From: Phoronis australis
Lineage: Eukaryota > Animalia > Phoronida
Reading direction: 5' to 3'
DNA: 64,000 nt
Assembly (NCBI GenBank): GCA_002633005.1
Contig: NMRA01000121.1
Span: 280,847-344,846 of the forward strand
Under the pieces are notes generated by a model. It searched no databases, had not been told where the DNA came from, and saw nothing but the letters and a program-made list of their open reading frames with translations. Position numbers and translations under genes: made by a program. This document shows, in pieces, positions 39,401 through 59,831 of this stretch (its first letter is position 1; each line of letters opens with the position of its first letter).

Positions 39401-42400
39401 TTAGAATGCAAAAATCGACTAGGTCAATCACCATAGCCAACCAATGCATTATATATGGTGAGACATGCTCCACCCATCCTGTAGTCATGAATTCTGTCAC
39501 TCATCTGCTGCCATAAAGCTCAGGGTCCATCACACAAACGCACTGGAGTTTTAAACATTTTCAGTTCAGGACACAGTACAGGCAAAGATATTATAAAATC
39601 TTTAGTACAGGGGAAAAGGGATTTTTTCAAATTTATCACAAAACGTAATCGTTCGGGTTAACGCCCATGCTCAGTTAACCGCCCACCCCCTACTTTAGGT
39701 GAATTTCGATTTAACCGCCCACTGCTCGGTTAACCGCCCCCCTGCTATTTTTGAAGATTTCCAATTAACCGCCCACTGCTCGGTTAACCGCCCATCCCCT
39801 ACTTTTGACGATTGGTGATTACCGCCCTGTGCTAATAGGAAACGCGAATCCCCGACCTTTTAGATTAAGATCGATGATAACATTGAGTGCAACGACGGCC
39901 TCAGAGACCGCGGTTTAGCAATGTGAATTATGATACCAGTAACAAATTATTGTAACGGGTCATCGATTAACTTCAAAATGTAATACTTGAACACTTTGTC
40001 ACTTTCTTTTCTTCTCATGTTCGCAAACTTTAGGAACCGCGCTGGCGTCTACANGAAATCATATTAAAGGGACAGAATGCTTATATAGCCCTTCATTGCA
40101 TGCAACTATCTCCAATTTGTATTGCGTGAAATTTAGGAAATATGTACCACACCACGTAGAAAGCCTTTGAGAAAAAAGGAAAATGTCAATTTTAACAAAA
40201 TAAAGAATTGTGTTCCCAATTCACTTGTTCAAAAGGAAAAAAAATCAGTCATTACCGAGCATGCAGAACATTACCAATTTTCTGTTCAACGAAAAAAAAA
40301 AACGCCCAAGGGGATGAAACTGCAAGTTTTTCACTTGAAGGTATGTTGCTCATTTCATTTTCAGTTCTTGCCAATTATGCATTGTTTGTAAAGGCCATGA
40401 CTTTCATTTGCATCCTCCCAGAATGAGATTTCTTAATTTTGGCGACCTCAGATCCCCTGTTTGGCAATCTCGGAATTTCTACAGGTGGATAAGGCTAACC
40501 CTGGAGCCCTGTATTGGAAAAACAAATTGTTTAGAAATTACATATTTATCACCAAGAATACCAGGAAGGCAGTAATGATTATTAATCATTCCCAAGAGAA
40601 CTTTGAAGACCAAGCAGCAGCCCATTGAGCCCAGTATAAACAATCTGCATGGATGGTCAGTCATCCCATCAACCTCAGGCTGGGAAGTCAGGCCAATAAC
40701 GAGCAACCAAGGAGACTCAGTGATGGGCCTTGTCTGGCCTTGTCTGCACTCTCTCAATTCATTGGTGTACAATATCAGTACCACTGCCACAGAGATGTTC
40801 CAACACCATTTTTAGAGCTTCGAAATTTTGTATGAAGTCATACACTATCCTCCAAGTGTGTAGACAATGGTTCAGAAATCATAGTCAAAGAAAAATGGAA
40901 AAAGTTATTACACGTTGAGAATAATGGTCAATGACAACTATGGAAATTCTGTTTAAGACAACTATAATTGGTAAAATTAGTGTCAAAAGTGACCACATTG
41001 TTGTGAATACTCAAAATTTTACCATTTTTTTTCTGTGGCATGTTAACTTTCCTTTATTTTGTTTAGACATTTGATCATAAAACATTCCATGTGTGTAAAT
41101 TTTTACTGTACAATGAATTTGACTTTTTCAAATACCATATTTCACCAAACTCCATTGGTAAAATAAGTCGTGGCAACACTGGCTAAATTGTGATACCAAC
41201 CTTTACCAGAAATGTGGCAGAGTAATATTATATACATGAGGTCTGTGGGGAAATAGTTCATCAAAAGAGGACTCAAACTGAGATACAATTGTATGCAAGC
41301 AGGGCGTACACTTTTGTATCCTTGTGTACTTATTGATGTATGCGCACCTTGAAACACACCCAAGGTCAGTTTCTGTTTCAGTGGTAAAATGATGACACAT
41401 TCAATTGAGTGTTCACATCTGTGAAGATCCAACTATATTCTCTATAGTAAATACATAGAGGCTGAGGTTGGCCAGTAGTGAAATGTATTACATAAACACA
41501 GAAAAATCAGGAACCCCAACTGGCGGGGAATCGAACCATAGGTCTCTATATTCTCAACTGAGTATTCACATCTGTGAGGATTCAAAATATTCTCAATTTA
41601 GCGTACACATCTGTGAAGATTCAACTATATTCTCAATTTAGTGTACACATCTGTGCAGATTCACTATATTCTAAATTTAGTGTACACATCTGTGACATTC
41701 AACTATATTCTCAATTTAGTGTACACATCTGCGATATTCAACTATATTCTCAATTTAGTGTACACATCTGTGCAGATTCGCAATATTCTCACTTTAGTGA
41801 ACACATCTGTGAAGATCCAACTATATTCTCAATTTAGTGTACACATCTGTGCAGATTCGCTATATTCTCACTTTAGTGAACACAACTGTGAAGATTCACT
41901 ATATTCTCACTTTAGTGAACACATCTGTGAAGATTCACTATATTCTCACTTAAGTGAACACATCTGTGCAGATTCACTATATTCTCACTTTAGTGAACAC
42001 ATCTGTGCAGATTCACTATATTCTCAATTTAGTGTACACATCTGTGAAGATTCATTATATTCTCACTTTAGTGAACACATCTGTGAAGATTCACTATATT
42101 CTCACTTTAGTGAACACATCTGTGCAGATTCACTATATTCTCAATTTAGTGTACACATCTGTGAAGATCCAACTATATTCTCAATTTAGCGTACACATCT
42201 GTGAAGATCCAGTTAATAAATAAACCTGAATTTAGAGAACATTTCAGTGAATATCCAACTAATAAATAAACCTGGATTTAGTGAACACTTCTCTGATGAT
42301 CCAATTATAATTACCAGAATTTTGTGAATACTTATGCAAAGAATCAACTATAGACATCTAAATAAAATGTACACTTCTACGAAGATATACTTTGGGAGCA

Positions 42401-45400: not shown

Positions 45401-48400
45401 TATATACCCTCCCAATATGTCAGGAATTTAGTGAATTGGAAATTGGCGAATTTTGACTATTTGTTGACATTATTTTGTGAGAAGATGAGCTGTAAGTGTC
45501 ATAGTAGGACCTGCATATAGGTCAGCAATATAGGTCAGCAATATAGGTCAGCAATGTGGGTCAGCAGCCTCGAGCTGCTATACATAAAGCAGCATCACAC
45601 CAGAAGGTGTTTTCTGTCAATAAACCCAAGTTTTGATTTAGGCCACTGACCATTATAAAATTGATCTCAAATCGGTCGTTTGTCAAAACAAGTATGATTT
45701 CTGTGCTTGGAAAGAGCTGTCAGTTTGTTATTTGCTCAGAGTGAACTGATAAATCTTCAGCCTAGAGAGTGAAGGACAACACACGATAATATTAAGTGGT
45801 CTGACTCAAAACGTTTTTTGATAGATTATACTAGGGATATTCCTGACCAGGTTTGAATCTGTGCCCTTTGGGCACACCTGATGATAAAAAGTGTGCCTTT
45901 TTCAAAAAGTTGTGCCCAGAAGTGGTAACATATGAAACAGAAACTTCAACGGTAATCGAAATAAGAACAAAGTCATGTTTTACCTGACTGGCTGTAAGTT
46001 GAATGGAATCTTGCATTTTTGGAAGAGTAATGTGCTTTATGCTGCAATATACTTGTGCTTTTTTATTTTTGTATGCGCTTATGATGCAAAGGCGCAGTCC
46101 AGAAATATCCCCTGCAGATACCATGACTTAAATCTCACTGTAAGCGACACCAATTCACGAGACCTGCCCATTTCAAAAGTACAAGTATGTAGCAACACCA
46201 CCAACAGAAAGTTACCAACTAACTTGGGTGAGTACACCATTGATTCCACTTCGTGTAAATCACTTTTTTCCCTTTACCGGGTACAATTAAGGGTTCAAAT
46301 TTTAGACAAACTGAAAGCTATCTTGGTCATATTCATTAAGTTGTGATCACCTTGGGTAAATCTGTCAAATGTCAAACAGAAGGAGACCTTTACAGGTACA
46401 GCATTCCAAGGGTGTGACTCGTGATTCTCTTTTGTTCAGAGATTCTCCACAGCTTTACATAGTATGTACCATGTAACATGCATGACTCAAACATTTGGAA
46501 AAACATTCTCTGAGCAAGGCAAGAGAATTTTGCGATAACCTATGACACAGGCTGGATCATTTTAGTTTCGGAAGATTGTCCAAAGTTACACATGACAAAT
46601 TCACCCAAGGTTGAGAGCGGTGGTCAAAATACCATAACTGAGCTACACATTCACAGAAATGAGCTACACACTCACAGAATACTGCAGAACTTTGTTCTAG
46701 ACACTCAGAGTAACAGTAACTATAAAAACAATTTGCTACAAATATTCAGTTTTAGTGAATGATTCATCACATTTATACACAAGTAAGACCATTCAAAACT
46801 AAACAACTAAATAAAATTTACAGGCAGTAAATAAAATTCTTCAAGGTTGGGTTGTATAGAGATTAGCAAAGTTCTGCAAATCCACTGGACTTCTAAGTCT
46901 TTATTGATAATCTATTTTGAAGATGTTAAGCTGTTGCTTCAAAAGGTCAAATGTTGTTTTTGTAACTACCAAGCTTAAAAGGTATGAGGATAAGACCAGA
47001 CTTGACATGGAGGACAATAGCAACTTCTAGTTGTCCAAAAGTTTTGAAGACCACTTTCACATAATNTCTGTGCCCTTTGGGCACACCTGATGATAAAAAG
47101 TGTGCTTTTTTTCAAAAAGTTGTGCGTAGCAGTGGTAACATATGAAACAGAAACTTCAACGGTAATCGAAATAAGAACAAAGTCATGTTTTACCCGACTG
47201 GCTGTAAGTTGAATGGAATCTTGCATTTTTGGAAGAGTAATGAGCTTTAAAAGATGCGCCCAGGGGCGCACTGCTGCAATATACTTATGCTTTTTTATTT
47301 TTGAATGCGCTTATGGTGCAAAGGCACAGTCCAGAAATATCCCCTGTAGATACCATGACTTAAATCTCACTGTAAGCGACACCAATTCACGAGACCCGCC
47401 CATGTCATATTTCAAAAGTACAAGTATGTAGCAACACCACCAACAGAAAGTTACCAACTAACTTGGGTGAGTACACCATTGATTACACTTTTTCCCTTTA
47501 CCGGGTACAATTAAGACTTCAAAGTTTAGATAATCTAAAAGCTATCTTGGTCATATTCATTAAGTTGTGATCACCTTGGGTAAATCTGTCAAATGTCAAA
47601 CAGAAGGAGACCTTTACAGGTACAGCATTCCAAGGGTGTGACTCATGATTCTGTTTTGTTCAGAGATTCTCCACATCTTTACATAGTATGTACCATATAA
47701 CATGCATGACTCAAACATTTGGAAAAACGTTCTCTGAACAGGGCAAGAGAATTTTGCGATAACCTATGACACAGGCTGGATCATTTTAGTTTCGGAAGAT
47801 TGTCCAAAGTTACACATGACAAATTCACCCAAGGTTGAGAGCGGTGGTCAAAATACCATAACTGAGCTACACATTCACAGAAATGAGCTACACACTCACA
47901 GAATACTGCAGAACTTTGTTCTAGACACTCAGAGTAACAGTAACTATAAAAACAATTTGCTACAAATATTCAGTTTTAGTGAATGATTCATCACATTTAT
48001 ACACAAGTAAGACCATTCAAAACTAAACAACTAAATAAAATTTACAGGCAGTAAATAAAATTCTTCAAGGTTGGGTTGTATAGAGATTAGCAAAGTTCTG
48101 CAAATCCACTGGACTTCTAAGTCTTTATTGATAATCTATTTTGAAGATGTTAAGCTGTTGCTTCAAAAGGTCAAATGTTGTTTTTGTAACTACCAAGCTT
48201 AAAAGGTATGTGGATAAGACCAGACTTGACATGGAGGGCAATAGCAACTTCTAGTTGTCCAAAAGTTTTGAAGACCACTTTCACATAATCAATAACAGGC
48301 ACTATTCAGTAATTGGTTGGTTCACAAAGTCATTGCTCAATAAAAGTGATCATTAACAAGTTAATGCAAGGATTGACGTTGTTAGTTATTTGGGTTATGT

Positions 48401-48887
48401 GGTTAAAAACTGAATCCAGGCTAATTTGCATTGCCAAAATGCAGGAGCACCAACAACAGTGGAGTTGAGACAATAGGGATAAACCTACTTTTACCAGCCT
48501 GCTTAACACAACAGTATATCAAAATTACAATAGGAATGTTCAGCCTGGTTGCAATTTAAATCTGTTAGTTATTGACTGTCGTGACAAGTCTTGTTATTCT
48601 GTTCATTTCTCACACAGTTCACACAAATGAATTTTAAATTATTTATGAAACTATTATATTAGGTATAAACACAGACTAGAAAAACATCATTAAACATCTA
48701 TAACGCATATCGATGTCTGTAAGACGTAGCCCAACAACGCCAATTCAATAACAATTCAAAATAATTTATCTATAAAAGCAGGAAGTGATTAGCTAGTAGT
48801 GGTAAGTAGTTTGACATTTGTTCACAGTTGTTGCAGAGTTGAGTACTCACTCTGAAGCTCCCGGGATACAACGCCGGTTGAAGTCAT
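175..48887 (-). CDS. CARMIL: CARMIL / LRRC16 (capping protein, Arp2/3 and myosin I linker; F-actin-uncapping protein), 28 coding exons in window, 3' end beyond left edge
   Basis: GT-AG exons with consistent phases: 48851-48887, 45135-45232, 43691-43744, 34082-34141, 32396-32523, 31539-31707, 26020-26093, 25504-25579, 24730-24818, 24177-24271, 23248-23441, 21080-21339, 20322-20473, 19404-19503, 18323-18377, 17044-17147, 15281-15418, 13716-13908, 7999-8139, 7181-7297, 6633-6695, 6255-6367, 5135-5222, 4059-4196, 3621-3690, 3010-3105, 1241-1390, ~175-433. Translation is colinear with recalled human CARMIL1: PH domain, [30 protein letters not shown], LRRs, EQAYRLQQG, helical domain, CPI motif. Confidence 0.95.
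1028..1161. repeat. Palindrome with 45-bp arms carrying hammerhead-ribozyme-like (Penelope-type) motifs
   Basis: Arms 1028-1072 and 1117-1161 (1 mismatch); internal hairpin GGACTGTAG-a-CTACAGTCC followed by GAAACG. Confidence 0.75.
1241..1390 (-). CDS. CARMIL: CARMIL exon 27
   Basis: [13 protein letters not shown]...[12 protein letters not shown]; tttag / GTATG. Confidence 0.8.
3010..3105 (-). CDS. CARMIL: CARMIL exon 26 (phase 1-1, possibly skippable)
   Basis: [31 protein letters not shown]; ctag / GTGAGT. Confidence 0.75.
3621..3690 (-). CDS. CARMIL: CARMIL exon 25
   Basis: [23 protein letters not shown]; ctcag / GTAAAA. Confidence 0.85.
4059..4196 (-). CDS. CARMIL: CARMIL exon 24
   Basis: [12 protein letters not shown]...TPDDDRSEP; open frame, AG/GT, phase 0-0. 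Confidence 0.85.
4561..4615 (+). mobile_element. 3' fragment of the same SINE family
   Basis: gcacacgtctggtacaacatgtaacagatcgcctgcattatttt is nearly identical to 21778-21822. Confidence 0.7.
5135..5222 (-). CDS. CARMIL: CARMIL exon 23
   Basis: [29 protein letters not shown]. Confidence 0.92.
6255..6367 (-). CDS. CARMIL: CARMIL exon 22
   Basis: [20 protein letters not shown]...[11 protein letters not shown]. Confidence 0.9.
6633..6695 (-). CDS. CARMIL: CARMIL exon 21
   Basis: [21 protein letters not shown]. Confidence 0.9.
7181..7297 (-). CDS. CARMIL: CARMIL exon 20
   Basis: LLPKLQQVA...[21 protein letters not shown]. Confidence 0.9.
7999..8139 (-). CDS. CARMIL: CARMIL exon 19
   Basis: [16 protein letters not shown]...[13 protein letters not shown]. 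Confidence 0.92.
9198..9243. repeat. (GAAT)n microsatellite
   Basis: atgaatgaacgaatgaatgaacc...gaatgaatgaat. Confidence 0.85.
10272..10330. repeat. (TTA)n microsatellite
   Basis: attattattattatt... Confidence 0.9.
13716..13908 (-). CDS. CARMIL: CARMIL exon 18
   Basis: [14 protein letters not shown]...[27 protein letters not shown]. Confidence 0.95.
14359..14537 (+). mobile_element. MITE family A (termini aattgacctatcgc...gcgataggtcaatt)
   Basis: TIRs present; related copies at about 23030-23149, 50608-50781 and 59832-60050. Confidence 0.8.
15281..15418 (-). CDS. CARMIL: CARMIL exon 17
   Basis: [45 protein letters not shown]. Confidence 0.95.
15566..16020 (-). mobile_element. 5'-truncated non-LTR retrotransposon (I/R1/Loa-group-like ORF2 C-terminus)
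   Basis: ORF 15616..16002 has [10 protein letters not shown] and a CCHC knuckle [18 protein letters not shown]; 8-bp direct repeat gggaatta at 15558-15565 and 16021-16028. Confidence 0.85.
17044..17147 (-). CDS. CARMIL: CARMIL exon 16
   Basis: [34 protein letters not shown]. Confidence 0.95.
18323..18377 (-). CDS. CARMIL: CARMIL exon 15
   Basis: [18 protein letters not shown]. Confidence 0.92.
18430..19238 (+). mobile_element. Dispersed repeat, Helentron/HINE (DINE-1)-like, with tandem aagtttcat-aaaatcc cores
   Basis: 18980-19235 is clearly homologous to 25660-25936 (aatagat.cctat.tgccaa.tttatgaaaatc...gagttttggagatagagcag...gacgga...ataaaa); similar cores at about 33290-33900 and 44040-44190. 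Confidence 0.55.
19404..19503 (-). CDS. CARMIL: CARMIL exon 14
   Basis: [32 protein letters not shown]. Confidence 0.93.
19865..19980 (+). repeat. Dispersed repeat shared with about 16048-16125 (+) and about 60555-60665 (-)
   Basis: attagaatt....cacc.taatag...tttttgctgtt..cagaatt.gccgtc.tgacggga. Confidence 0.55.
20322..20473 (-). CDS. CARMIL: CARMIL exon 13
   Basis: QLLLGISVN...[23 protein letters not shown]. Confidence 0.95.
21080..21339 (-). CDS. CARMIL: CARMIL exon 12
   Basis: [14 protein letters not shown]...[22 protein letters not shown]. Confidence 0.95.
21585..21826 (+). mobile_element. tRNA-derived SINE
   Basis: Pol III A box TGGCCTGGTTG and B box GGTTCAAGTCC; AT-rich tail; 11-bp TSD tcatgtgggat at 21574-21584 and 21827-21837. 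Confidence 0.85.
23030..23149 (+). mobile_element. MITE family A partial copy (3' half)
   Basis: acgaaggtgt...atcctggcgataggtcaatt. Confidence 0.6.
23248..23441 (-). CDS. CARMIL: CARMIL exon 11
   Basis: LRR: [20 protein letters not shown]...[11 protein letters not shown]. Confidence 0.95.
24177..24271 (-). CDS. CARMIL: CARMIL exon 10
   Basis: [31 protein letters not shown]. Confidence 0.95.
24636..24751. repeat. 31-bp tandem repeat spanning the CARMIL exon 9 donor
   Basis: catccttacctgcctagtcctactccactca, about 3.7 copies. Confidence 0.9.
24730..24818 (-). CDS. CARMIL: CARMIL exon 9
   Basis: [29 protein letters not shown]; AG|GTAAGG donor. Confidence 0.9.
25504..25579 (-). CDS. CARMIL: CARMIL exon 8
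   Basis: [25 protein letters not shown]. Confidence 0.95.
25660..25936 (+). mobile_element. Second copy of the HINE-like repeat
   Basis: Aligns by eye to 18980-19235. Confidence 0.55.
26020..26093 (-). CDS. CARMIL: CARMIL exon 7
   Basis: [24 protein letters not shown]. Confidence 0.95.
27930..29225 (+). mobile_element. Kolobok-like non-autonomous element (TTAA TSD, AGG...CCT ends, about 270-bp inverted termini, THAP remnant), nested in the 4.9-kb element
   Basis: TTAA at 27926-27929 and 29226-29229; inverted repeats 27930-28203 / 28955-29225; frameshifted THAP motifs [22 protein letters not shown], then CQVC...[13 protein letters not shown]. Confidence 0.85.
28196..28915 (+). pseudogene. 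Frameshifted, truncated THAP-domain transposase N-terminus
   Basis: Fragments in different frames ([21 protein letters not shown]; [13 protein letters not shown]; [19 protein letters not shown]; [10 protein letters not shown]...C..GH..W); no DDE core. Confidence 0.75.
30574..30680. repeat. About 53-bp tandem duplication inside the 4.9-kb transposon
   Basis: atgaatcatagcRgagctgaccagcgactagcattagttcgtcgaattgcgc, 2 copies. Confidence 0.9.
31539..31707 (-). CDS. CARMIL: CARMIL exon 6
   Basis: [14 protein letters not shown]...[27 protein letters not shown], a CARMIL signature. Confidence 0.95.
32396..32523 (-). CDS. CARMIL: CARMIL exon 5
   Basis: [12 protein letters not shown]...[11 protein letters not shown] within ORF 32392..32619; AG/GTAAG. 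Confidence 0.9.
34082..34141 (-). CDS. CARMIL: CARMIL exon 4 ([20 protein letters not shown])
   Basis: ttctag / GTAAAA; resembles LELTFSYLEIHGV. Confidence 0.9.
34567..35220. mobile_element. TTAA-type MITE (Kolobok-like GG termini)
   Basis: TIR gggggtttgacatagttt / aaactatgtcaaaccccc; flanks ttca (mutated) and ttaa. Confidence 0.75.
37296..37454. mobile_element. Tc1/mariner-type MITE with TA TSD and internal TTAACCGCCC subrepeats
   Basis: ta|ccgtaaacgttcgggttaacgccc...gggcgttaacccgaacgattacgg|ta. Confidence 0.85.
39644..40053 (+). mobile_element. Left part of a longer element related to the 37296 MITE, cut by the assembly gap at 40054
   Basis: cgtaatcgttcgggttaacgcccatgctcagttaaccgcccacccc and further TTAACCGCCC repeats; no right TIR before the N. 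Confidence 0.65.
41410..42210. repeat. Minisatellite with a 39-40-bp unit (tgtgaagattcactatattctcactttagtgaacacatc), about 17 copies
   Basis: Direct tandem repeats; these explain the repetitive ORFs at 41574-42223. Confidence 0.95.
43691..43744 (-). CDS. CARMIL: CARMIL exon 3 ([18 protein letters not shown])
   Basis: tacag / GTATG; resembles VLTSCRAFLVTARIPTK. Confidence 0.9.
45135..45232 (-). CDS. CARMIL: CARMIL exon 2 ([32 protein letters not shown])
   Basis: tttcag acceptor, GTGAG donor; PH-domain start. Confidence 0.9.
45858..48289. repeat. 1.2-kb direct duplication joined at a single N (47066), probably two haplotypes
   Basis: 45858-47065 versus 47067-48289, near-identical with a few SNPs and indels. 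Confidence 0.9.
48851..48887 (-). CDS. CARMIL: CARMIL exon 1 ([12 protein letters not shown])
   Basis: ATG at 48887-48885, donor A|GTGAGT; resembles human MTEESSDVPRELI. Confidence 0.85.
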
Positions 48888-49271
48888 TATTTTTATGTTT
48901 GGAAGAGCAATATCTCCTAAGCTCACAGTGACTTTTTATCAATGAAAGAAAACTTTTAGAGCTTTATCAGTTGCACACTTAGTAACAAAATGTTGCGGAA
49001 GTGAGCGAGGGAGTGTCCTTATACGCCATGATGTTGATGGTATACGTCATGCATGATGAACCACAAAAGCTTTTAAGTTCTGAAGAATCTGCATATTGTT
49101 TACTCATTTTTAGAAATTATGTGGCCTCTTGTCAACTGAAATTACAAACCAAATATTTGAATGTTGTAAATAAATAGGTAATTCTCCGGTTCAAGGGAAT
49201 AATTTTTAATTCTTAAAATATTACTTGCGTATTGAAGCGACATCTGTGTGTTGTGCTTGAAAGTTGACGAA
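48888..49271. promoter_or_regulatory. Putative bidirectional promoter / 5' UTRs shared by CARMIL (-) and COQ9/GLMN (+)
   Basis: Divergent ATGs at 48887(-) and 49272(+), 384 bp apart; ETS/GABP-type CGGAAGTG at 48996-49003 and a CRE-like ACGTCA near 49045. Confidence 0.7.
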
Positions 49272-49329
49272 ATGTCTCAACTGTGCTTGCGTTGTGTTGG
49301 AGTTCTCAGGCACCAAATTTATTCTCTTG
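49272..49329 (+). CDS. COQ9: COQ9 exon 1 (MSQLCLRCVGVLRHQIYSL), mitochondrial presequence-like
   Basis: ATG with A at -3; strong G|GTAAGA phase-1 donor that matches the phase-1 acceptor at 54533. Joined peptide MSQLCLRCVGVLRHQIYSLGLRHLSTTKLRCS is Arg/Leu/Ser-rich with no acidic residues. Confidence 0.78.
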
Positions 49330-52300
49330 GTAAGAATTGCGAAGCGCGAATGGTTGCAGAATGCCTTTCTATGCTTCAGAACTTTTGGGCTTCCTATTTC
49401 GTTACATTTTCGTTCACATTTATCGCCAACTGGCGAGTTCTTGTAACCCACCTCATTCGGCATTCACATGACTGGTGTGGCATGACGAGTCATGACCATC
49501 GGCATCGGCCGCTCGGCATCGCTTTCACAGACACAGTTCAGACTGTTCAGAGCCTTGTTGAGGACCACCAACCCTGCCTCATAGGTCAGGATTGGTAGAC
49601 AAAATACACCGGTCTCGGAAAACAGCCTTAACTCTTGTTGCTATGCATTTTATGCATGTAAATTACGTAACGTGGTTTTATTGACTTTTATTCAGTGGAA
49701 CTGGAAGCAAAGAAATGACTTCAGTTTTACCATCATTCATAGACATTTTCGCTGTCTTAACAGGCCATTGGGACAGTGAAGCTCCTACAGGCTATAGGTA
49801 CTTCCCACGCCGGAAGCTTTTCGGCAAATTATGCCTCACTCTGATTAAAACATCAAAGTCACATCGTTATAAGTACCTGTTGTGCATAGAGGGATACCTT
49901 AGCCGCCCTTAGGTCTTAGGAGGCTTTGAATGTATTTAATTCCTTCTAACTCGAACAAATACCCTTTTTCAAGCAGTCCTTTGTTCAGTAAATCAGTAAC
50001 TGGCCATTTTTAACTTTGCTAGCACTCCTTGATTGTAACGTGAGTATTTGCGTGAGTTGGAAGGAATTAGACATCGACGGCCTGCTGAGGACTGTGAGGT
50101 GTCCCTCTATGCGCAAAAGGTACTTATAACTACAGGGCTTTGATGTTTTAATCAGTATGAGGCATAATTTGCTGAAACGCTTCCGGCGTGTGAAGGCCCT
50201 ATAGATGCTTGAAATCTGTAAAATGCAGGATTACCTTTTTGTTGCTATTGCAACTTGCAAGCAACTTGACAGTCGCGGGTCACTATCAAAGCTTTTAGTG
50301 TACATCACTGACATCAATAACTTAAATTTTAGGAATTTTAAAAATTCAATTGTATTTAATTAATGATTTAATAGAAAAATTTATCCTCTATGAAAATATT
50401 CAGCATACAGGCGCATTTGGCAGAGTCTGTCAAAAGCTCCTGTGTTGTACATTCACTAGCAAGGAATCGGGCATCTAGAAAATTTCACGTCACCCTTCCA
50501 AATCTCAGATACCAAGAAACGAAACAGTTGTGTAGTCGTGTATCACCTTTTCATTTAAAATTCATCCAAGTTCATGGAGTGGTAAATTTAAGCAGTCACT
50601 ATGTTGGAACTGACCTTTCACAAGCTCCGCGCCCTTGCGAAAAGTCGACAACAATAGGCTTTACCCAACAATGCGTTGTTTGTCGGGTAAAATGTCGTCT
50701 TGGAAACGAAGGTGTGTGAAGAATGCGGCATTCTATTTGGTCAGTTAAGCCGTCACTCAAAATCCTGGTGATCGGTCAACTGAGGTGCTGAAGACTTGAC
50801 CAGTGGATGTATCAATGCTATTCGTTGCAACCACTTAGGACTGGCACATCGTTAACTGTGTGAGAGGATTGTTTCATGCCACAATTAGAAGGTGACAGCT
50901 TGTTGGCTACAGAATGACTTTCACTTGGACCCTCTTCATGTTGCAGGAATTTGACAGCAGAAAGAAAGAATTTGCATTACTTCAAAGTCGAACCATGGAG
51001 GATGACGAAGCTTATAGTTTACTGGCCAAGATAAAGCAAGAGTTGGCTGAGGAGAACATTGATGAGCTGAAGAAGATAATATTGAATGCTGACTGTCGAC
51101 AACACTTTGTTGCCATTGGGTGGGACTTGGTTCCAGAACTGTCTGCCTTCTTGACTGATCAAGTCAAATGTCGGAAACCGAATTTACTGTATGCCTGTGA
51201 GGATTTGCTAATCTGTGTTGCCACTTACGGCAATGCTAAGGAACTTCTGTTGGCGTATTTAGAACAGTTAGATCAGTTTAAAGAGGATGTTAAATTCAAG
51301 ACACTGCTTCAACCTCTTCAGATTTGTCTGGCACGGTTACCGGCTAAACGTCAGCACTCTTTCGATATCACCTTGGAGACTGTGTATGCACACTTGCTAG
51401 CACTGCCTAAACCTGAATATCATGACCTAGAAGGTGATGAGAAGGCATTGTTAGAAACTGATCCTGATGTTGTGCGAATATGTGAGGTGGTTTCCGCGGC
51501 GTTAGATTTTATCAGTCCATTTGTGGAGGAAGTGGAAACATGTAGGAGAGGGCTAGTTGATGAGACAGAGCTAGATTCCAAAGTTACGTTTCAACGACTT
51601 CAAATAGCAAGATTCTTGCTCCGTATTATTGATCACCCTTTGCGTTACACCAGTTTGGAATTAAGGGAGGGAGGTACGATTAAGAGCAGTATGAGAATTG
51701 TGTCAGAGACATTGATGGTGTTTCTTGCAAAATTGTTCGGTGATTTCCAGGTGATGATTATGGAGATCATTTCTAGTAATCACAAAATTGTGGAGAATCA
51801 CCTCGATAGTGACAATCAAGAGGAAAAAGTATTTGCCGAGGAAAAAATCAGCGATGTTGCTTTGGGGTGTTTCTTGTACCTGTTGCATCATGAGTTCATA
51901 TGCATTAATAGCTTTGCTTACGTCATCAGTAGCTGGAGTAGACTGGAAACAAGCTTGATTTACATAACAGCTCTGTTGTCGGATGATCATGCCTATGTCA
52001 CTGCTAAGGGAGTCTTGCTAGCACAGACACTAATTGGTAATATCGTCGATGGTGTTTTGCCCGAGTCTGTCCTTGATATGCCCAAGTGCAGCAGTTTTAT
52101 CCGTGCAATGATTCAGGTGATGACCTATTGCCCATCAAAAGAAGTGCGACAAAATGCAGTCAAGATAGTCCCTAATCTGATATCAAAGTTTTGCACCAGT
52201 GGTCGAGCCAAACTTCTCATCTTTGTTCTCAGCGTAGCTACTCATGCTGGGGTACTTGGATTTGCCATCAATCTACTGAAAGAGGAAATTAATCGCAGCT

Positions 52301-55300
52301 TGAACTCCTCTCCTGAAGACAGCATTCCGAATAAAACCATTAAGTTCTTCTTCCAGCTAGTCTTTCGTCTTCAGGACGGTGCAGCAACTGACCTTCTGGA
52401 CAGATCCGACAGAATCATGGCCGCTTTGAACCTGTTGCGTTTTCTAGTCATTCGTGACAGATCGAGTGAAGACCACACAGGAATATGGTCCATTTTACCT
52501 ACAGTGGAAAGAAATTTTCTTGAACCGCTGCGAACTGGTTTAGATATGTCGCGAGCCCACTATCAACTAGAACTAAAGGGTATACAGAATGAGAAGAATG
52601 ATGAACAAGGTCTGCAGATGTCGCTAAGTGTTGGAGGGCAAACCATGCCCAGTGTGGACAGTAAACAAAAAGTGGAGATGTTACAACTGGCCTTGCATAC
52701 CTTTGATATGATGGACAGTGTTCTGGGCCGTGTTAATGAACTGATAACATGTAATAAGAAGTCAGTTTAAGCTTAGAATGTTACTGAGTAGGGTATACTA
52801 GTTAGTTTTCCTGTTGACTGTATACGCATTTTGTACTATCCTGCAATAAACAGTATTTTTGTTCTGTTATTAATTGAACTTTTCCATGATGCCAAATTTT
52901 TTCTTCAACTAATTTGCATTGTCAAAAGTTAGAATTTCTAATTTTTCCCAACCTTTTGTTTGTTGTGATTTGCAAAAAACTCAATGTTTACTTTTGTCAG
53001 TATCATCGTTTGCTGTCAGTTCACAAACTCAATCTATTTGAATCTTTCAATAATAAATTAATCTGACTGTGCGTACAGTTTCCAAGGTATTGTTCGTAGC
53101 TACATAACTACTCTTTGACAATACGTCCTTTTTTAAACACTGCTTGCTGCAGGCAGCTATGGGTTGAGCAAATTTCCATGTCAGATGTACATGTTGGCTG
53201 TCAAAAATCAAGACCACTGATTCAGAAGTTTTCATGTAAAGTCGAAGTCTTTGATTTTTGACAGTCGAGTTCTTGGGCTCAAAGGCCTTAAAAAATCCCA
53301 GACACCGTTTTGTAGGTAATAGACCAAATAAACAGAATTTACTACAATCCTAGGAAAAAGTTCGACCTGTGGAAGTTATGGCGGTCTCCATGGAAAATCG
53401 TGATTTTTTACGAAAAACATCACGTGATTGCAAATGTTCGAGCAACATTTTCGTTTACATTACCGACTTCCTGATTACCATGGATACAAAATGGCAATCA
53501 ATATTTCAAAAGGTATTAAAAGAAACATGGCCCTCGGTAACCATGGTAGTCAGTTACCCTAATTCGAGTACAATGAACTTTCTTGGATGGATCAAAAACT
53601 ACATTTTATTGCTTTTATGACCATTTGTCACGCTATGGTAATTCTTGAGGATGAAAGCACAAGTCAAAAAAGGTTTGTCATCTAGTTTTATGAAAATGTT
53701 TCCCATTTAGGGATATTTTAGCTGAGAAACCTGCTACCATTTAAAGACGATTAAAGAAAAAAAATTTTGGAAAAACTTCATGTCCATCTCGGATATCTCC
53801 GTAGTTCGAGGCTAAATCACTTTTGCACGGGATTTTTGTTGTGTCACTAAAGCCCATTTTGCTCATTAAGCTAATTCTTCACCTATTTAACACATTTTAT
53901 TAAATGTAACGCATGTGTTTTTGATCAGTTTAGTAGAATTTCTAAACAAAAATAAATTTAATCCAGTCTCAGCATTGTCTCTGTCTAGACACCACATGGT
54001 TGATTTTTGGTCATTAGAACTGTAGGAAGGTTCATGTAGCCAGAATTAAGATGACAATTTTGCAGCGCGTTCTGTGCAAGATCCTTGAAGAATCACCATA
54101 GATCTGCTATTTTCTTAGTTTTAATGGCTGTGATTAAAGAGAAATGTTTAGAGATAAGTACCGGCCATGCTCTACTTATCGCCTACTCCTGAAATGTCCA
54201 AAAATTCAGTTGAGTGCCCGCTTTGGGTTACCCACCTTCAATTTAATGAGTTTTCCATTCATATTTTGAGGAAGCAGCATTTTTATGTTGAATTATATTG
54301 GAAACGTGTGTAACACATAACTGCCTCACTTTGTCAGCTGAGTTTGCCAACACAACTCTGTTAGAGCTTTGCGGATTCTCTTTTCTGAAATCAAGGAATG
54401 TTTCCTTTGGTTTTATGCAGGCAATCTGTTAACATTTGTTAAGACTGGATTTTTGTAACTGATTCATTTATTCGATCAGTATGTTATAGTTTTGAAAAAG
54501 TTTACAGTGCCTCTCAACTAAATTGTTTACAGGACTGCGACATCTGTCGACAACCAAACTGAGATGTAGCATAGATTCACAGACCCAGTCGGAAAACAAT
54601 AGTGAAGAAAAAGAAGAGCGTGTTAAAGAGACCATCCTGACGACCGCCCTGAAATACGTAGACAAACATGGCTGGACACAAGAGGCATTGTCTCTAGGTA
54701 TGTTGATGGTCGGCCAATCACTTGTCAGCTTTCACTTCAGTGGGCTCAGTCTGCCTAAGTCATCACCTTCCTTGCCTCCCATTGTTATGTTGATGGTCGA
54801 CCAAACACTTGAGAAATGTGGTAATAAAAGCTTTTTCACTTAAACTGTCATCAGTCTGTCGAAGTCATCACCTTTCTTGGCTCCCATTGTCATGTAAAAG
54901 TTTTGGTTACGTCATTTTTAAAAGTCGTCATTTTCACGTAACTCCTCGCTCAAAAGTAATCCCATGACTATATGCGAAAATTTTCGCCACATTGAACTTG
55001 TGCGCTGGTTATAAAATATTTTGCCAAGCACTGTTGATAGAAATTAAGAATCCCATGAAAAATACAATTTACTTCTTCGTATGGTTAACTCCTATAAATT
55101 TCGAACAAAAGTAATCGCCAAAATCACTCTCTCATTTTTCAAAGGCTTTAACGTTGTTACGAATGGCCACAATTTCTCAGAAGCATTTGTCTGATGGTGG
55201 CTGTGATATAGATCTTTAGAAATATGTAGCATTTATGTCGTGCTACTAATCTCTTATGAAAAAATGAAATTTCACTTGTTGGCCTTATTTGTAAGATTTT

Positions 55301-58300
55301 ATCTTGCTTAAGGACTTAACAAAATCAATGTGCCTGTTGGAATTTTTGCTGAAGTTTTTCACAAAAACGTGAGGACATGGGTTTAGCCATTCGTATCGTA
55401 CACTTGTTGAAAGACATATATTCAACCAATAATCCGTAATGTAGGTAGAGCAGTGGTAAGGACAGAATGGGTATGTGTGAATTTTATTATTAAAAAAATT
55501 AATCTCCAGTGTCGCACTTCATCCACAATTTGAAAATTATGAATGCACGTTACTGTACATCACTTCCTGCTGTGTGTCTTTCAGGTGCTGAAGAATGCGG
55601 TTACCCTGGCATTGCCCACGGTATGTTCCCTGATGGTGGAGTGGAGCTAGTCCACTTTGTATACAGAACCAACAACGAGAAGCTTGCAGACATACTGAGA
55701 AGTGAGGTGGCAGAGGCTGAACAAAACCCTGACTTGTACGTTAAGATTTGTCGGTAGTCTCGGTGCAATGACCACACAATTAGTTGGTGGAAAATGAAGG
55801 GAAATGCACTGGATTCATCCTAATATGCAGCTAGACCAGATACAATGGTGTTATGCTTTCTAGGGCTTTGTGAGCTTAACACAAATTATTGAACATCATA
55901 ACATTTCTGATTACCGCTTGAAAACATATTGTAAGATTAAGTTTCCTTTTAATGTTTTTTACGAAAAAGGCAATGTACTGTAATAAGTCTAGAGTTCGGC
56001 CCAGAAAGTACCAGATAGATTTTTCCGTATCTTTTTATACTGACCTGATATGAATACACTTCCTTGTTTCAATGGGTTTTGCAAAAATATGGACATTGTG
56101 TTTCTGTTTGATTCGTTTGCAACGGAGTGCTGAACTTGGCACACTGTTGAACTTTTAATTAATGAAACATCTCGTTGCTTAGATGTTGAACCATGGTCAC
56201 TCGAGTGGTTTTGCCTTTTCTAGTTTAACTGCAGAATGACTGTGTTCATCTCCATTCATGACACAATATCATCAATGAATGTTTGTTTACAGAAAGAAGT
56301 CAACTCAAAGATTTACTACAGATGCACTGAAAACTAGGCTGGAAATGACTATACCTTACCTAGACATATGGCCGCAGGTTGGTATGTTTCTTGGCCACTC
56401 GTGTCCCATAGGGAATGGATGTCCTGTTGGGATTACCAGCTGAGAATCCTTTGATCAATAGATGGAATGATGGTTTCATTGTAGACTAGTTGATAAGGTC
56501 TTGCATAACCTTAATACACTGAAATCAACCATGGTTTTCTTTCACTTGTATTTTCATCCGGTTTGATTGATATCGGTGATATACTGGTTAAAGCAAGGTA
56601 TTTATGCTGAACAGATTAAGTATCCAAGGAGTCGATTCCCTGGTCAGAGAAGCTGCTGTTTCCGGGATCTTCTGCAGAATTTCAACTCAGTTCATTGTGA
56701 AATCACCTCTTTGCTTAGCATAGTCCTATCCTTAACAACAAAAAATTCAGAAGTAACCATGATGATGGTCTTTAAATCATGGGCAGGTTTCATTTCAAAG
56801 GTGCACTGATTTGTAAAACCACCATTTCTGTAGGTTACTCTTTTGACCGTTGTTTGGTAATAGATACGCTATGCAAATCATGCTAAAAGCTATGTAAATT
56901 CTGCTGAGAAGTTATTTTTGTGGAGAAATTTGTCAAAATGAAATTTTACTTGTCCGCCATATTGTGTCCCAAACTGAAGAACTTTAACCAGTATTCATTC
57001 CCTCTTTTCATTAGTTGGTTTCATTCTGCTTTGGATGACCCCATCCCACAATCCTCTGTAATGTGACCTGTGTAGCTATCTGTAAAAAGGTCTATTATGT
57101 GTTGTTACTTACTCCACCTGCAGGCGATGGGACTAATGACTCTTCCACAGAACGTACCAACTGCCCTACAGAACCTGACACAGTTAACTGATGATATCTG
57201 GTACCATGCTGGTGACAGAGCAACTGATGTGGGTATTAAACCAATTGAAAGAGTACAATCATGTTTTTTTGTTGGGAAATGGCTTCGACTTGATTGTGAA
57301 GTATTGGGGGTAGTGTTATAATTTCTGTTCTGTAAGTCAGGTTAAACTGAAACTCAAATCTTCGCTACAACTTGTAGATATTACCTTATGAATTGATGGA
57401 CATTGTAACTAGAAAATTCACCCTTTGAACTTGTTCTTTTCTTTCTTTTGAAACTTTTGGACTAAAATGAAGTTTGTGTTTCACCATAAGTGACAAGTGT
57501 ATTACTTTGATGAGATAAAGCAAGTTACTGTACGTAGAGGATGCCATGCTGATAACACGGGCCTTGCTCATCATTTGCAGTTTACCTGGTACACAAAACG
57601 AGCGTCACTGGCCTTTGTGTACAAAACCTCGGAGCTATCTCTCATACAAGACAAATCTGAAGGGTTTAAAGACACGTGGGAGTTCATGAACAGGAGAGTG
57701 GAGGACGTAGTCACCGCTGGCAAGCGTTATCACCAAGTACGTGACAACAGAAAGCGGTTATTAATTAAAATAAATTGTCCATTAACGTGCATTTAGAGTG
57801 TGAATCTATTCCTAATATGAAATTACCTGACTTTCTAAGTTTTATTTCATGCACTTACCCTGTCGTGTAGGCGTGTTTCACATATTTTAAGTGTCCGTCA
57901 CAAACACACCCGCAGTCTTGCTTAACTTGTTGACCTTGATAAAAGTGATGACTAAACTTAGTGATGACATTTTCACAAATGTAGGCATGCAAGGAAGTGT
58001 GTCAACTTGTGCAGACTGACGAGTTGTCTGATGATGAGTTAAACAATTTGGTAGAGTGACGGTAATAAAAAAATTTATTTGTTTGACATTTTTCATTTGC
58101 TGCCTGTTTACTGTTCAAAGAGCAAAACTTTGGCCGAGACTGGACTTGAAAATTGGCCAATCTCGTTGTTTGGAATTTGAAAGTTTACTTACTTCAGTTG
58201 GTTAATGTTCGAGTGAAGCCTCGGGTGACGTTTGGTGATTGATTACTATCTTGCCAGGATTAGAAAGATGTTCTAAACAATTGTTCTGAACAATTTTGCT

Positions 58301-58825
58301 GTCTGCTTTGTTTGCCCTTTGGCTCACAGTATAGTCTAAGATTCTATTTTCAGGTTGGACAGTCGACAGAGGTGTTGAGCGAAGTTGTAAAAAATGCCAG
58401 TATAATAGTAAGATAAACAGATTCAATTTGCTGCTGTCAAAATCAATTAAACTTTAAATATGACCCCATAGGAATAGCTGTCTGACAGCATTCCATTGGA
58501 AAGAGGTTTTGCTTGGGTTCTACATTTCCTAGCTTGTGTTACACAACTTGAGTTTACTCTTGGGTTGTACCTACCATGCAGTCTGATTAACTTCTTGGTG
58601 ATAACAGTATTGCAATACCTAGGTGACATCTACTATATTGGCCTAGGGAATGAACATCACATTTTGATAAATTTTGACCTGACAATAGCCTGGATGCAAT
58701 ACAAGATGATACAAATGTGAAATGTTCTTTATTAACTTGCCTCTTGATTGCATTGATACTACAGCTGCTACATTTTGATTTTCCAGGTGAAGAATCTTAT
58801 TGGAGTTAATGACCGGAATAGGTGA
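49272..58825 (+). CDS. COQ9: Ubiquinone biosynthesis protein COQ9, mitochondrial (8 exons, 270 aa)
   Basis: Exons 49272-49329, 54533-54697, 55585-55735, 56293-56377, 57124-57228, 57581-57736, 58354-58407, 58787-58825. Phases are consistent (813 nt). Motifs ILTTALKYVDKHGWT, DDIWYHAGDRATDFTWYTKR, QDKSEGFKDTWEFM and C-terminal VKNLIGVNDRNR match recalled COQ9. Confidence 0.93.
49792..50204. mobile_element. MITE with about 65-bp imperfect inverted termini, in COQ9 intron 1 upstream of GLMN
   Basis: cacgccggaagc...gcaaattatgcctca..ctgattaaaacatcaaag versus ctttgatgttttaatcag..tgaggcataatttgc...gcttccggcgtg. Confidence 0.75.
50608..50781 (+). mobile_element. MITE family A copy (diverged)
   Basis: caagctccgcgcccttgcgaaaagtcgac...ggaaacgaaggtgtg...ggtcagttaagccgtcactcaaaatcctgg. 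Confidence 0.75.
50914..50946 (+). promoter_or_regulatory. Splice acceptor for the GLMN exon (branch-like TGAC, pyrimidine tract, ttgcag|G at 50946/50947)
   Basis: atgactttcacttggaccctcttcatgttgcag|GAA. Confidence 0.7.
50995..52770 (+). CDS. GLMN: Glomulin (FAP68/Alf4 family; RBX1-binding cullin-RING ligase inhibitor), single-exon CDS of 591 aa
   Basis: Within ORF 50914..52770; Kozak ACCATGG at 50995. Recalled glomulin motifs: IGWDLV, GNAKELLLAYLEQL, VMTYCPSKEVRQ, HAGVLGFAI, DLLDRSDRIMAALNLLRFLVIRD, TGIW, FLEPLRTGLDMSRAHY, ALHTFDMMDSVLGRVNELI. Length is close to human GLMN. Confidence 0.95.
   Translation: MEDDEAYSLLAKIKQELAEENIDELKKIILNADCRQHFVAIGWDLVPELSAFLTDQVKCRKPNLLYACEDLLICVATYGNAKELLLAYLEQLDQFKEDVKFKTLLQPLQICLARLPAKRQHSFDITLETVYAHLLALPKPEYHDLEGDEKALLETDPDVVRICEVVSAALDFISPFVEEVETCRRGLVDETELDSKVTFQRLQIARFLLRIIDHPLRYTSLELREGGTIKSSMRIVSETLMVFLAKLFGDFQVMIMEIISSNHKIVENHLDSDNQEEKVFAEEKISDVALGCFLYLLHHEFICINSFAYVISSWSRLETSLIYITALLSDDHAYVTAKGVLLAQTLIGNIVDGVLPESVLDMPKCSSFIRAMIQVMTYCPSKEVRQNAVKIVPNLISKFCTSGRAKLLIFVLSVATHAGVLGFAINLLKEEINRSLNSSPEDSIPNKTIKFFFQLVFRLQDGAATDLLDRSDRIMAALNLLRFLVIRDRSSEDHTGIWSILPTVERNFLEPLRTGLDMSRAHYQLELKGIQNEKNDEQGLQMSLSVGGQTMPSVDSKQKVEMLQLALHTFDMMDSVLGRVNELITCNKKSV
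52845..52850 (+). terminator. GLMN polyadenylation signal AATAAA (intronic relative to COQ9)
   Basis: AATAAA 75 nt after the GLMN stop, followed by T/GT-rich sequence. Confidence 0.7.
54533..54697 (+). CDS. COQ9: COQ9 exon 2
   Basis: tttacag|; LRHLSTTKLRC...ILTTALKYVDKHGWTQEALSL; G|GTATGT. Confidence 0.93.
55585..55735 (+). CDS. COQ9: COQ9 exon 3
   Basis: AEECGYPGIAHGMFPDGGVELVHF. Confidence 0.93.
56293..56377 (+). CDS. COQ9: COQ9 exon 4
   Basis: KKSTQRFTTDALKTRLEMTIPYLDIWPQ. Confidence 0.93.
57124..57228 (+). CDS. COQ9: COQ9 exon 5
   Basis: AMGLMTLPQNVPTALQNLTQLTDDIWYHAGDRATD. Confidence 0.95.
57581..57736 (+). CDS. COQ9: COQ9 exon 6
   Basis: FTWYTKRASLAFVYKTSELSLIQDKSEGFKDTWEFMNRRVEDV. 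Confidence 0.95.
58354..58407 (+). CDS. COQ9: COQ9 exon 7
   Basis: ttttcag|VGQSTEVLSEVVKNASII|GTAAGA. Confidence 0.85.
58787..58825 (+). CDS. COQ9: COQ9 exon 8 (VKNLIGVNDRNR*)
   Basis: ttccag acceptor; resembles human C-terminus LKNLTGLNQRR. Confidence 0.88.
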   Translation: MKNLIGVNDRNR

Positions 58826-59337
58826 TGGAAGGATGGATCAAGAAATATCATACTGGAAAGTTCAAGGTCTTTATTTTTGCATGACTTTTAAGCCCGTGGC
58901 ACTTGATTAGTGCGTTGCGCTTATGAAGATCATGTGATTGTGACTTGTTCAAGGAGTGGTTTGTGATCTGCTGCTCAGTTGGGGCACTAGTTATTGAAAA
59001 AAAGGACTTCTTGTGCACAGATAATCCTAATAATTATCTGTGTGGTGCACCTCATCAGGTCTCAACAGCTGTTCAGTGAACTTAGTATCTGAAGTGTGGT
59101 TGTTAGTGGACCTGTTCTGTAGCACTAGACATTTGCCATTAAAATCTATTACAACCTTATGCAGTGTTAGCTTAAGTCAAAGTGTGAAATGGACAATTGT
59201 GTTGATGACTCTTAAGGTTTTCCATTAATGTGTATACACAGGGTGACTTTGTTTGTATCACTAAACAGGATTATGAATCTTTGTAATGGAACATGCTATG
59301 TTACATTCATTAAAAGCTTAAAATTCACTGTTTTGTT

Positions 59338-59343
59338 AATAAA
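59338..59343 (+). terminator. Candidate COQ9 polyadenylation signal AATAAA
   Basis: AATAAA about 510 nt after the stop codon, with GT-rich sequence downstream. Confidence 0.5.
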
Positions 59344-59831
59344 ATTAAAGACAGTTCCAGCGTCCTTGATGACACTTTTTCAGGTGTGTTTTGATTTTGA
59401 TGTGGATGTTCATCAATGTTTGCAGTATTTTCAATCAAATTAGATTAACATTTTGTAAATAGTTTTGTGTGACCCCATGCAGTGCTAATTAGGTAAAGTT
59501 GACACTTGACAATGCGAGTCTCAAACAGGTAACAAGTCATATTTTGAGGTGATAAATCAAGCCATGCCAACAATTGACGAACTAACTCCACTCATTTCAG
59601 ATATGTGTAGTCTGTAAAAGATGAGGCACAACCATGACGCATTAAAAGCCTCTAAAAATGTTCCACACTAAACAAAAACCAAAACTAACTCAAGGTGATG
59701 CTGCGTGTGACTTGAGATAGATGCGCGGTTTTGTAAACTCCTGGCTCATAAAATCGATCTTGTAATATTCGTTACCATGGTAGGATTCTATTTCTGTTTC
59801 CAACAAAAACACAAACTTTAAGACTATCAGC

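Follow-up and report, generated by a model that had tools for sequence, protein, structure and literature searches.

A coding exon of COQ9 is also upstream open reading frame sequence for a nested glomulin gene in the phoronid Phoronis australis

A glomulin gene inside the first intron of COQ9

The stretch of DNA analysed here (the window) comprises 64,000 nucleotides of Phoronis australis contig NMRA01000121.1 (assembly GCA_002633005.1, positions 280,847 to 344,846 of the forward strand). RNA reads from three stranded raw runs of one study carrying the same species label (X1 to X3), together with one contig run (X4), were mapped to positions 48600-59600, with about a fifth of each raw run being used. 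The exon joints in these RNAs define a COQ9 gene of eight exons encoding 270 amino acids, in which the Pfam domains PF21392 and PF08511 both lie in one open spliced frame (Table 1). After the methionine encoded by exon 1, the next in-frame methionine occurs at residue 88, beyond the COQ9_N domain. Therefore, COQ9 depends on the exon-1 ATG as its only usable start.

The predicted presequence, formed by exon 1 and the start of exon 2, has basic and amphipathic N-terminal windows and carries no acidic residue among its first 33 positions. By composition and hydrophobic moment, the COQ9 N-terminus thus looks like a mitochondrial presequence. An earlier note on this DNA, made from the sequence alone, had described exon 1 as the COQ9 targeting peptide. 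This description fits the composition when the start of exon 2 is included, but exon 1 supplies only two of the five basic residues located before residue 31. When exon 2 of COQ9 was used by itself to look for homologs, the single candidate did not score.

Two further features of the COQ9 transcripts were observed. At least five differences between reads and window are listed in the 151-nt exon at 55585-55735, four of them synonymous, as would be seen in a highly polymorphic species or with RNA from another population. The joint between exons 6 and 7 (57732-57736 to 58351-58354) has three reported versions whose ends are unusual, and one of these includes an extra A in 16 X3 reads. These ends are probably due to allelic differences at the end of the exon, and not to non-canonical splicing.

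Between COQ9 exon 1, which ends at 49329, and exon 2, which begins at 54533, resides a complete glomulin (GLMN) gene on the same strand, and the two genes are therefore nested. The predicted protein matches the glomulin family along its length (140.5 bits; Pfam cut-off 25). Its nearest relatives are the glomulins of annelids and nemerteans, at about 39-40% identity, and in a quick tree calculated from 34 selected glomulins it falls beside nemerteans and Lingula with a support of 87, which assigns the animal only loosely to the spiralians. Glomulin controls cullin-RING ligases, and the human gene has multiple exons. The gene is intron-free in the window and in a related locus (L001, described below), as an RNA-derived retrogene might be.

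Sense-strand depth over the glomulin gene is about 3-9, and all three of the read variants listed there are synonymous. Depth drops to about 2 in the bin 52637-53003, which in combination with an AATAAA motif suggests that an intronic poly(A) site ends the glomulin mRNA. Among the joints listed, none connects glomulin to COQ9 exon 2.

A divergent gene on the minus strand begins 384 nt from the COQ9 ATG (48851-48887, continuing toward the window start). It has minus-strand RNA coverage, and an X4 contig spans 48851-48944. A single promoter region may serve all three genes. Nearer the window start, open reading frames at 21076-31817 look like CARMIL/LRRC16, and a minus-strand open reading frame at 15616-16065 resembles, by eye, the terminal part of a protein from a non-LTR retroelement. 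The window also contains a tandem repeat array (41560-42220) and a duplicated segment (45800-48000) with near-identical open reading frames at 46514-46762 and 47738-47986 and an N at 47066. Short intronic repeats at 49830-50100, 50600-50800, 53250-53900 and 56900-56990 attract numerous reads that match them in part, from either strand, including some opposite-strand joints.

Table 1. Features of the COQ9/glomulin locus in the window, and glomulin-COQ9 protein models in other species.
Feature	Position	Strand	Basis or remark
Short transcribed 5′ leader of exon 1	49256..49271	+	Joint read; reaches at least this far
Shared coding exon 1	49272..49329	+	58 nt; codons 1-19 of COQ9 and one further base (phase 1); also uORF codons 1-19 on glomulin mRNA; RNA joints
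Intron spliced out in the glomulin isoform	49330..50946	+	GT..AG, 1617 nt; 11 joint reads, 3/3 raw runs
Start of glomulin terminal exon	50947..50954	+	Last two uORF codons and TGA stop (50952-50954); next base C
Spacer from the uORF stop to the glomulin ATG	50955..50994	+	40 nt in window, 36 nt in reads; AGAA x3 repeat at 50959-50970
Glomulin (GLMN) coding sequence	50995..52770	+	591 aa, intron-free; PF08568, E=9e-41
AATAAA, likely intronic polyadenylation signal of glomulin mRNA	52845..52850	+	Motif; falling read depth
COQ9 exon 2	54533..54697	+	79 joint reads from exon 1; COQ9_N PF21392; rest of predicted presequence
COQ9 exons 3-5	55585-55735, 56293-56377, 57124-57228	+	RNA joints, open frame
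COQ9 exons 6-8	57581-57736, 58354-58407, 58787 to stop at 58825	+	RNA joints, PF08511, open frame
Glomulin-COQ9 fusion models			P0107, P0163, P0171, P0172, P0174, P0175, P0177, P0185-P0187, P0195

One exon, two splice partners and a short upstream frame

In the window sequence, an ATG is located at 49272, a GT donor at 49330 and an AG acceptor just before 50947. The RNA data reveal that this donor is joined to two different acceptors. The joint from 49329 to COQ9 exon 2 at 54533 is present in 27, 28 and 24 reads of X1, X2 and X3, respectively (79 in total), and in one X4 contig. The joint from 49329 to the glomulin exon at 50947 is present in 4, 6 and 1 reads of the same raw runs (11 in total), and is absent from X4. 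All of these reads are in the sense orientation with GT..AG borders. The glomulin portion of the exon-1 joints is therefore 11 of 90, or 12% (95% CI 6-21%). The junction to glomulin and the sharing of the exon by the two genes had both been proposed in the earlier note, and both are borne out: 11 stranded reads from three of three raw runs cross the junction, each gene is identified by its Pfam domains, and both joints are seen in RNA. Thus, a single exon is coding sequence for COQ9 and upstream open reading frame (uORF) sequence for glomulin.

In both X1 and X2, one or more reads across the glomulin joint contain at least 61 letters on the exon-1 side and reach about position 49268, and therefore the upstream ATG is present on these RNAs. 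One X2 joint read extends at least 73 letters on the exon-1 side, to 49256 or further. In X1, 6 of 20 molecules terminate at 49268, which is 4 nt ahead of the ATG; trans-splicing at this position is ruled out, as judged by eye, by the absence of an acceptor there. Depth around the glomulin junction is low, with 14 reads at 50959. Eleven of these cross the exon-1 joint, and the other three have no exon-1 assignment. In the bin 50802-51168, mean depth roughly matches that expected from the glomulin exon alone.

Joining exon 1 to 50947 creates a uORF of 21 codons in the window sequence, terminated by the TGA at 50952-50954, exactly as had been read from the DNA. The uORF ATG has G at -3 and T at +4, a context of intermediate quality. 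The strong context previously claimed for the glomulin ATG at 50995-50997 is evident in its purine at -3 and G at +4. A scan of the joined glomulin leader from 49256 onward found no second ATG.

All 14 reads over 50959 (7/7 in X1, 6/6 in X2 and 1/1 in X3) lack 4 nt, or one AGAA unit, relative to the window. When this deletion is applied, the spacer is reduced to 36 nt, the glomulin ATG falls into the uORF frame, and this frame is open from the TGA to the ATG. Therefore, with the 36-nt spacer, the TGA of the window sequence is all that would block a fusion. The earlier placement of the glomulin ATG 40 nt downstream in another frame is correct for the window allele but not for the reads, and the 40-nt frame offset reflects either variation among alleles or a slip in the assembly, and is no fixed safeguard. 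The proposal that this offset shields glomulin from a mitochondrial presequence consequently has to be given up; the shielding falls to the TGA two codons past the junction. Glomulin is also not a guest protein that receives its host's targeting peptide in the manner of rps14/sdh2, since the TGA stops the frame after the 4-nt deletion as well.

The stop codon itself was covered to a depth of only 7, 6 and 1 reads in the three raw runs, and nearly all variant rows listed had, in one of the runs, contig depth or a minimum of 10 reads. A change of the stop codon in the sequenced animals would therefore probably escape variant listing. The uORF stop is shown for the window sequence.

The gene pair in other animals

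Among 207 proteins collected, 11 are public models that contain glomulin followed by COQ9. They come from 11 species, representing an oyster, a snail, wasps, ants, a butterfly and a stick insect. Two of the 21 models scanned fuse a whole glomulin to COQ9, namely P0163 from the oyster Saccostrea cucullata and P0107 from the butterfly Epargyreus clarus. When the COQ9 part of the oyster model was compared with long proteins, four of the 12 matches contained a glomulin domain (Bulinus, Odynerus, Vespula and Trachymyrmex) and a fifth, from Timema, contained glomulin pieces. Three others are fish models that join COQ9 to an RNA polymerase II subunit. Because such COQ9-polymerase fusions exist, fused models reveal adjacency and not nesting.

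Some of the models are more informative with regard to exon structure. Vespula maculifrons P0186 consists of 12 extra residues, COQ9 residues 1-16, glomulin and then COQ9 residues 20-283, and it is the only one of the 11 fused models with an exon-1 part ahead of glomulin. The ant models re-enter COQ9 at Gly18, which matches a phase-1 Gly junction like that at Gly20 in the window. Wasp and ant glomulins that are annotated separately start at their own methionine, without the COQ9 N-terminus, and a presequence filter applied to glomulin relatives flagged 2 of 153, both of which are fragments. Judging from these protein models, glomulin-COQ9 adjacency appears to be common to molluscs and insects, and the nested arrangement probably goes back to the protostome ancestor. 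The 11 fusion models are probably annotation errors caused by the nested layout, or possibly real read-through isoforms.

In Drosophila, we take CG30496 to be the fly glomulin gene. CG30493 is COQ9 (PMC5455201), and one P insertion is listed for both genes (PMC4978919).

A 10-row glomulin alignment was also used to search other DNA collections; an alignment of 37 rows contained no conserved stretch suited to this. At least one related locus, L001, was recovered among the 599 metagenome stretches listed, compared with 0 of 30 viral contigs and 0 of 39 prokaryote genomes. The glomulin of L001 has no intron and is preceded by an acceptor located 34 nt ahead of its ATG; in the quick tree of 34 selected glomulins it groups beside that of a snail with a support of 85. 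In the phase-1 frame, a stop is located directly past the junction, and stops occur in all three frames. L001 has no COQ9 match by tblastn, in which nothing scored better than E=1.5, and the contig ends about 0.7 kb past glomulin.

A filter for presequence-like phase-1 exons recovers only the true exon 1 in the 3.1 kb of the window to which it was applied, and two donors in L001, the better of which would create a 19-codon uORF with a 29-nt spacer. Since the settings of this filter were chosen with the data already in view, and it is also passed by 25 of 300 shuffles and by 5 of 40 window tiles, the L001 exon 1 is a weak candidate that serves as a lead only. A candidate presequence exon at 561-624 of L001 could also be a repeat; its start context seems to us to resemble the TISU/YY1 short-leader element. 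The earlier note had suggested conservation of the early stop and of the spacing as a check. The stop is found in two of two loci if the L001 intron is phase 1, but the spacer varies (40, 36 and 29 nt).

Our literature search found no report of the glomulin-COQ9 pair, and the co-mentions of GLMN and COQ9, judged by listing, are unrelated. CG30493 and CG30496 are absent from 12 of the 13 supplementary files of a survey of shared exons (PMC4528330), and neither gene is named in the main text of another article, whose supplements may list the pair (PMC3514665). Database annotations may already display the shared exon.

Possible consequences for glomulin expression and comparison with known systems

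The reading that we favour, and hold to be probable, is that shared exon 1 is spliced to glomulin in roughly an eighth of its joints and otherwise to COQ9, and that the 21-codon uORF steadily dampens glomulin, which is made by ribosomes that scan past the upstream ATG or restart after the uORF. The glomulin exon would then be an alternative terminal exon whose mRNA is ended by the intronic poly(A) signal. Ribosomes initiating at the shared ATG would halt after 21 codons on the glomulin mRNA, and this ATG should be equally efficient on both mRNAs because their 5′ end and start context are identical. Leakage past the uORF ATG would be helped by the short leader and the middling context. Reinitiation is also conceivable, as 21 codons would lie in the permissive range for mammals, where uORFs permitting reinitiation are usually shorter than 30 codons (PMC5972666). 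Given that the best spacing for reinitiation is about 78 bases (PMC6614817), the 36-40-nt spacer is suboptimal. Since the uORF stop is located in the last exon with no junction downstream, the glomulin mRNA should escape junction-dependent nonsense-mediated decay, which may explain why an intron-free glomulin is tolerated in this position. The expected effect of the uORF is a constant dampening of glomulin. The nesting may have arisen once, before molluscs and insects diverged, and may have been retained because glomulin needs the COQ9 promoter.

The earlier suggestion of stress regulation implies a more elaborate arrangement, wherein stressed ribosomes skip the shared ATG more often and thereby lower COQ9 and raise glomulin. 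In control of the CHOP/GADD34 type, a single uORF with a weak start context is bypassed under phosphorylation of eIF2-alpha. The locus presents a lone uORF whose start context is middling, followed by a main ATG in strong context, in a layout that appears old, and the early stop recurs in two of two loci provided that the intron of L001 is phase 1; moreover, the level of eIF1 alters initiation at suboptimal starts (PMC5972666). However, an early stop is likely to arise by chance, at about 6-7% per codon, and a spacer that differs in length and frame among alleles and loci (40, 36 and 29 nt) argues against tuning. A GCN4-type mechanism is rejected, because the joined leader from 49256 on has one ATG and no series of uORFs, and the two-uORF scheme with permissive and inhibitory members (PMC5972666) is thus inapplicable. 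Furthermore, with a 36-40-nt spacer, delayed reinitiation would tend to miss the glomulin ATG, and as the next six ATGs past it are all out of frame, such a delay would be expected to lower glomulin, not raise it. We regard a stress switch at this exon as unlikely. Similarly doubtful is a broader proposal in which one start codon has acted as a reciprocal switch since the protostome ancestor, with COQ9 made on one isoform and glomulin silenced on the other, so that start-codon stringency would trade coenzyme-Q synthesis against cullin-RING ligase control, and UGA-C readthrough in the in-frame allele could add a mitochondrially tagged glomulin.

Readthrough of the uORF stop, or its loss in a common in-frame allele, might by itself yield some glomulin with a 34-residue N-terminal extension that is partly mitochondrial. 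UGA followed by C is generally the leakiest stop context. That the base following a stop influences readthrough is described in the literature (PMC5972666), all 14 reads have the in-frame spacer with an open path from the TGA to the glomulin ATG, and a substitution in the TGA at depths of 7, 6 and 1 would probably go unlisted. Nonetheless, the window allele is out of frame, as is the candidate join in L001 with its 29-nt spacer and a second stop in the glomulin frame. Exon 1 would contribute only 19 residues with two arginines, and no full-length glomulin relative passes the presequence filter. Such an extended glomulin is very improbable in our estimation, slightly more so than the idea that the glomulin mRNAs actually translated lack the upstream ATG, because they start just past it or within intron 1, and that the uORF form is a poorly translated by-product. 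The X1 read ends that pile up 4 nt before the ATG could reflect scattered starts, some of which fall beyond it, and the three unassigned reads at 50959 could be such molecules. However, at least two joint reads include the ATG, 11 of the 14 reads join exon 1, and the depth in the bin 50802-51168 is roughly that of the exon alone, which make this idea quite improbable. Splicing noise into a decaying retrocopy is scarcely credible. While the window glomulin is indeed intron-free, its 591-residue frame is intact, its listed variants are all synonymous, 12% of the exon-1 joints lead to it through a normal acceptor, and it has the same neighbour in molluscs and insects; we reject noise on the basis of the intact frame, the joint share, the acceptor and the kept neighbour.

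The COQ9/glomulin locus is a clean, RNA-supported case of an exon that is coding for one gene and uORF sequence for another. From the adjacency in molluscs and insects, this pairing seems to predate by far the human cases discussed below. The split between these groups is usually dated to more than 550 million years ago. If the nesting holds across protostomes, fly genetics could be used to determine whether shared starts are regulatory or merely tolerated; insertions close to the fly COQ9 start would affect both genes, as one listed allele does.

This kind of layout is already known in humans, for other gene pairs (for general background, see PMC5470649 and PMC11694760). Human ZBED1 is located inside intron 1 of DHRSX (PMC3606216) and shares the DHRSX first exon (PMC2568002). 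Its mRNA carries a 40-41-codon uORF identical to residues 1 to 35-36 of the precursor of DHRSX, including the signal peptide, and the start of this uORF was detected in a ribosome-profiling initiation set (PMC3951408). Both loci have a guest nested on the same strand and a host first exon spliced to both genes, and the short frame begun by the host start codon ends ahead of the guest ATG; for COQ9/glomulin this is evident from the window sequence, with translation of the uORF being predicted. In the human pair, however, a signal peptide takes the place of the mitochondrial tag, and a domesticated vertebrate transposase that of the guest, whereas the phoronid locus combines a predicted mitochondrial presequence and a 21-codon uORF with an old cellular gene, in a pairing found in molluscs and insects.

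LEPR and LEPROT share two exons, and the uORF-bearing LEPR is a long multi-exon gene and not an intron-free guest. The promoter and first exons of these genes are shared, and a 36-codon uORF on the LEPR mRNA matches the first 31 residues of LEPROT (PMC3951408). As with COQ9/glomulin, a common first exon causes the N-terminus of one gene to be the uORF of the other. In grasses, rps14 is nested in an intron of sdh2 and is spliced onto the mitochondrial targeting exon of its host (PMC1543663). The outcome is the opposite of that described here, as rps14 uses the targeting peptide and glomulin is severed from it by a stop. In Drosophila, the unrelated conserved genes Su(var)3-9 and eIF-2gamma acquired a common promoter and first exon after intron insertion, and FlyBase was reported to contain 130 genes that share 5′ noncoding exons and 11 sets that share coding starts (PMC4528330). 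These fly pairs, as far as described there, share noncoding exons or in-frame N-termini, whereas the COQ9/glomulin exon is coding in one mRNA and uORF sequence in the other. The cholinergic ChAT/VAChT locus is an old, conserved example of promoter and first-exon sharing. Another is formed by the unrelated genes CPNE1 and RBM12 (PMC2568002). The shared exons of these last two pairs are noncoding and create no uORF conflict, unlike the exon shared by COQ9 and glomulin.
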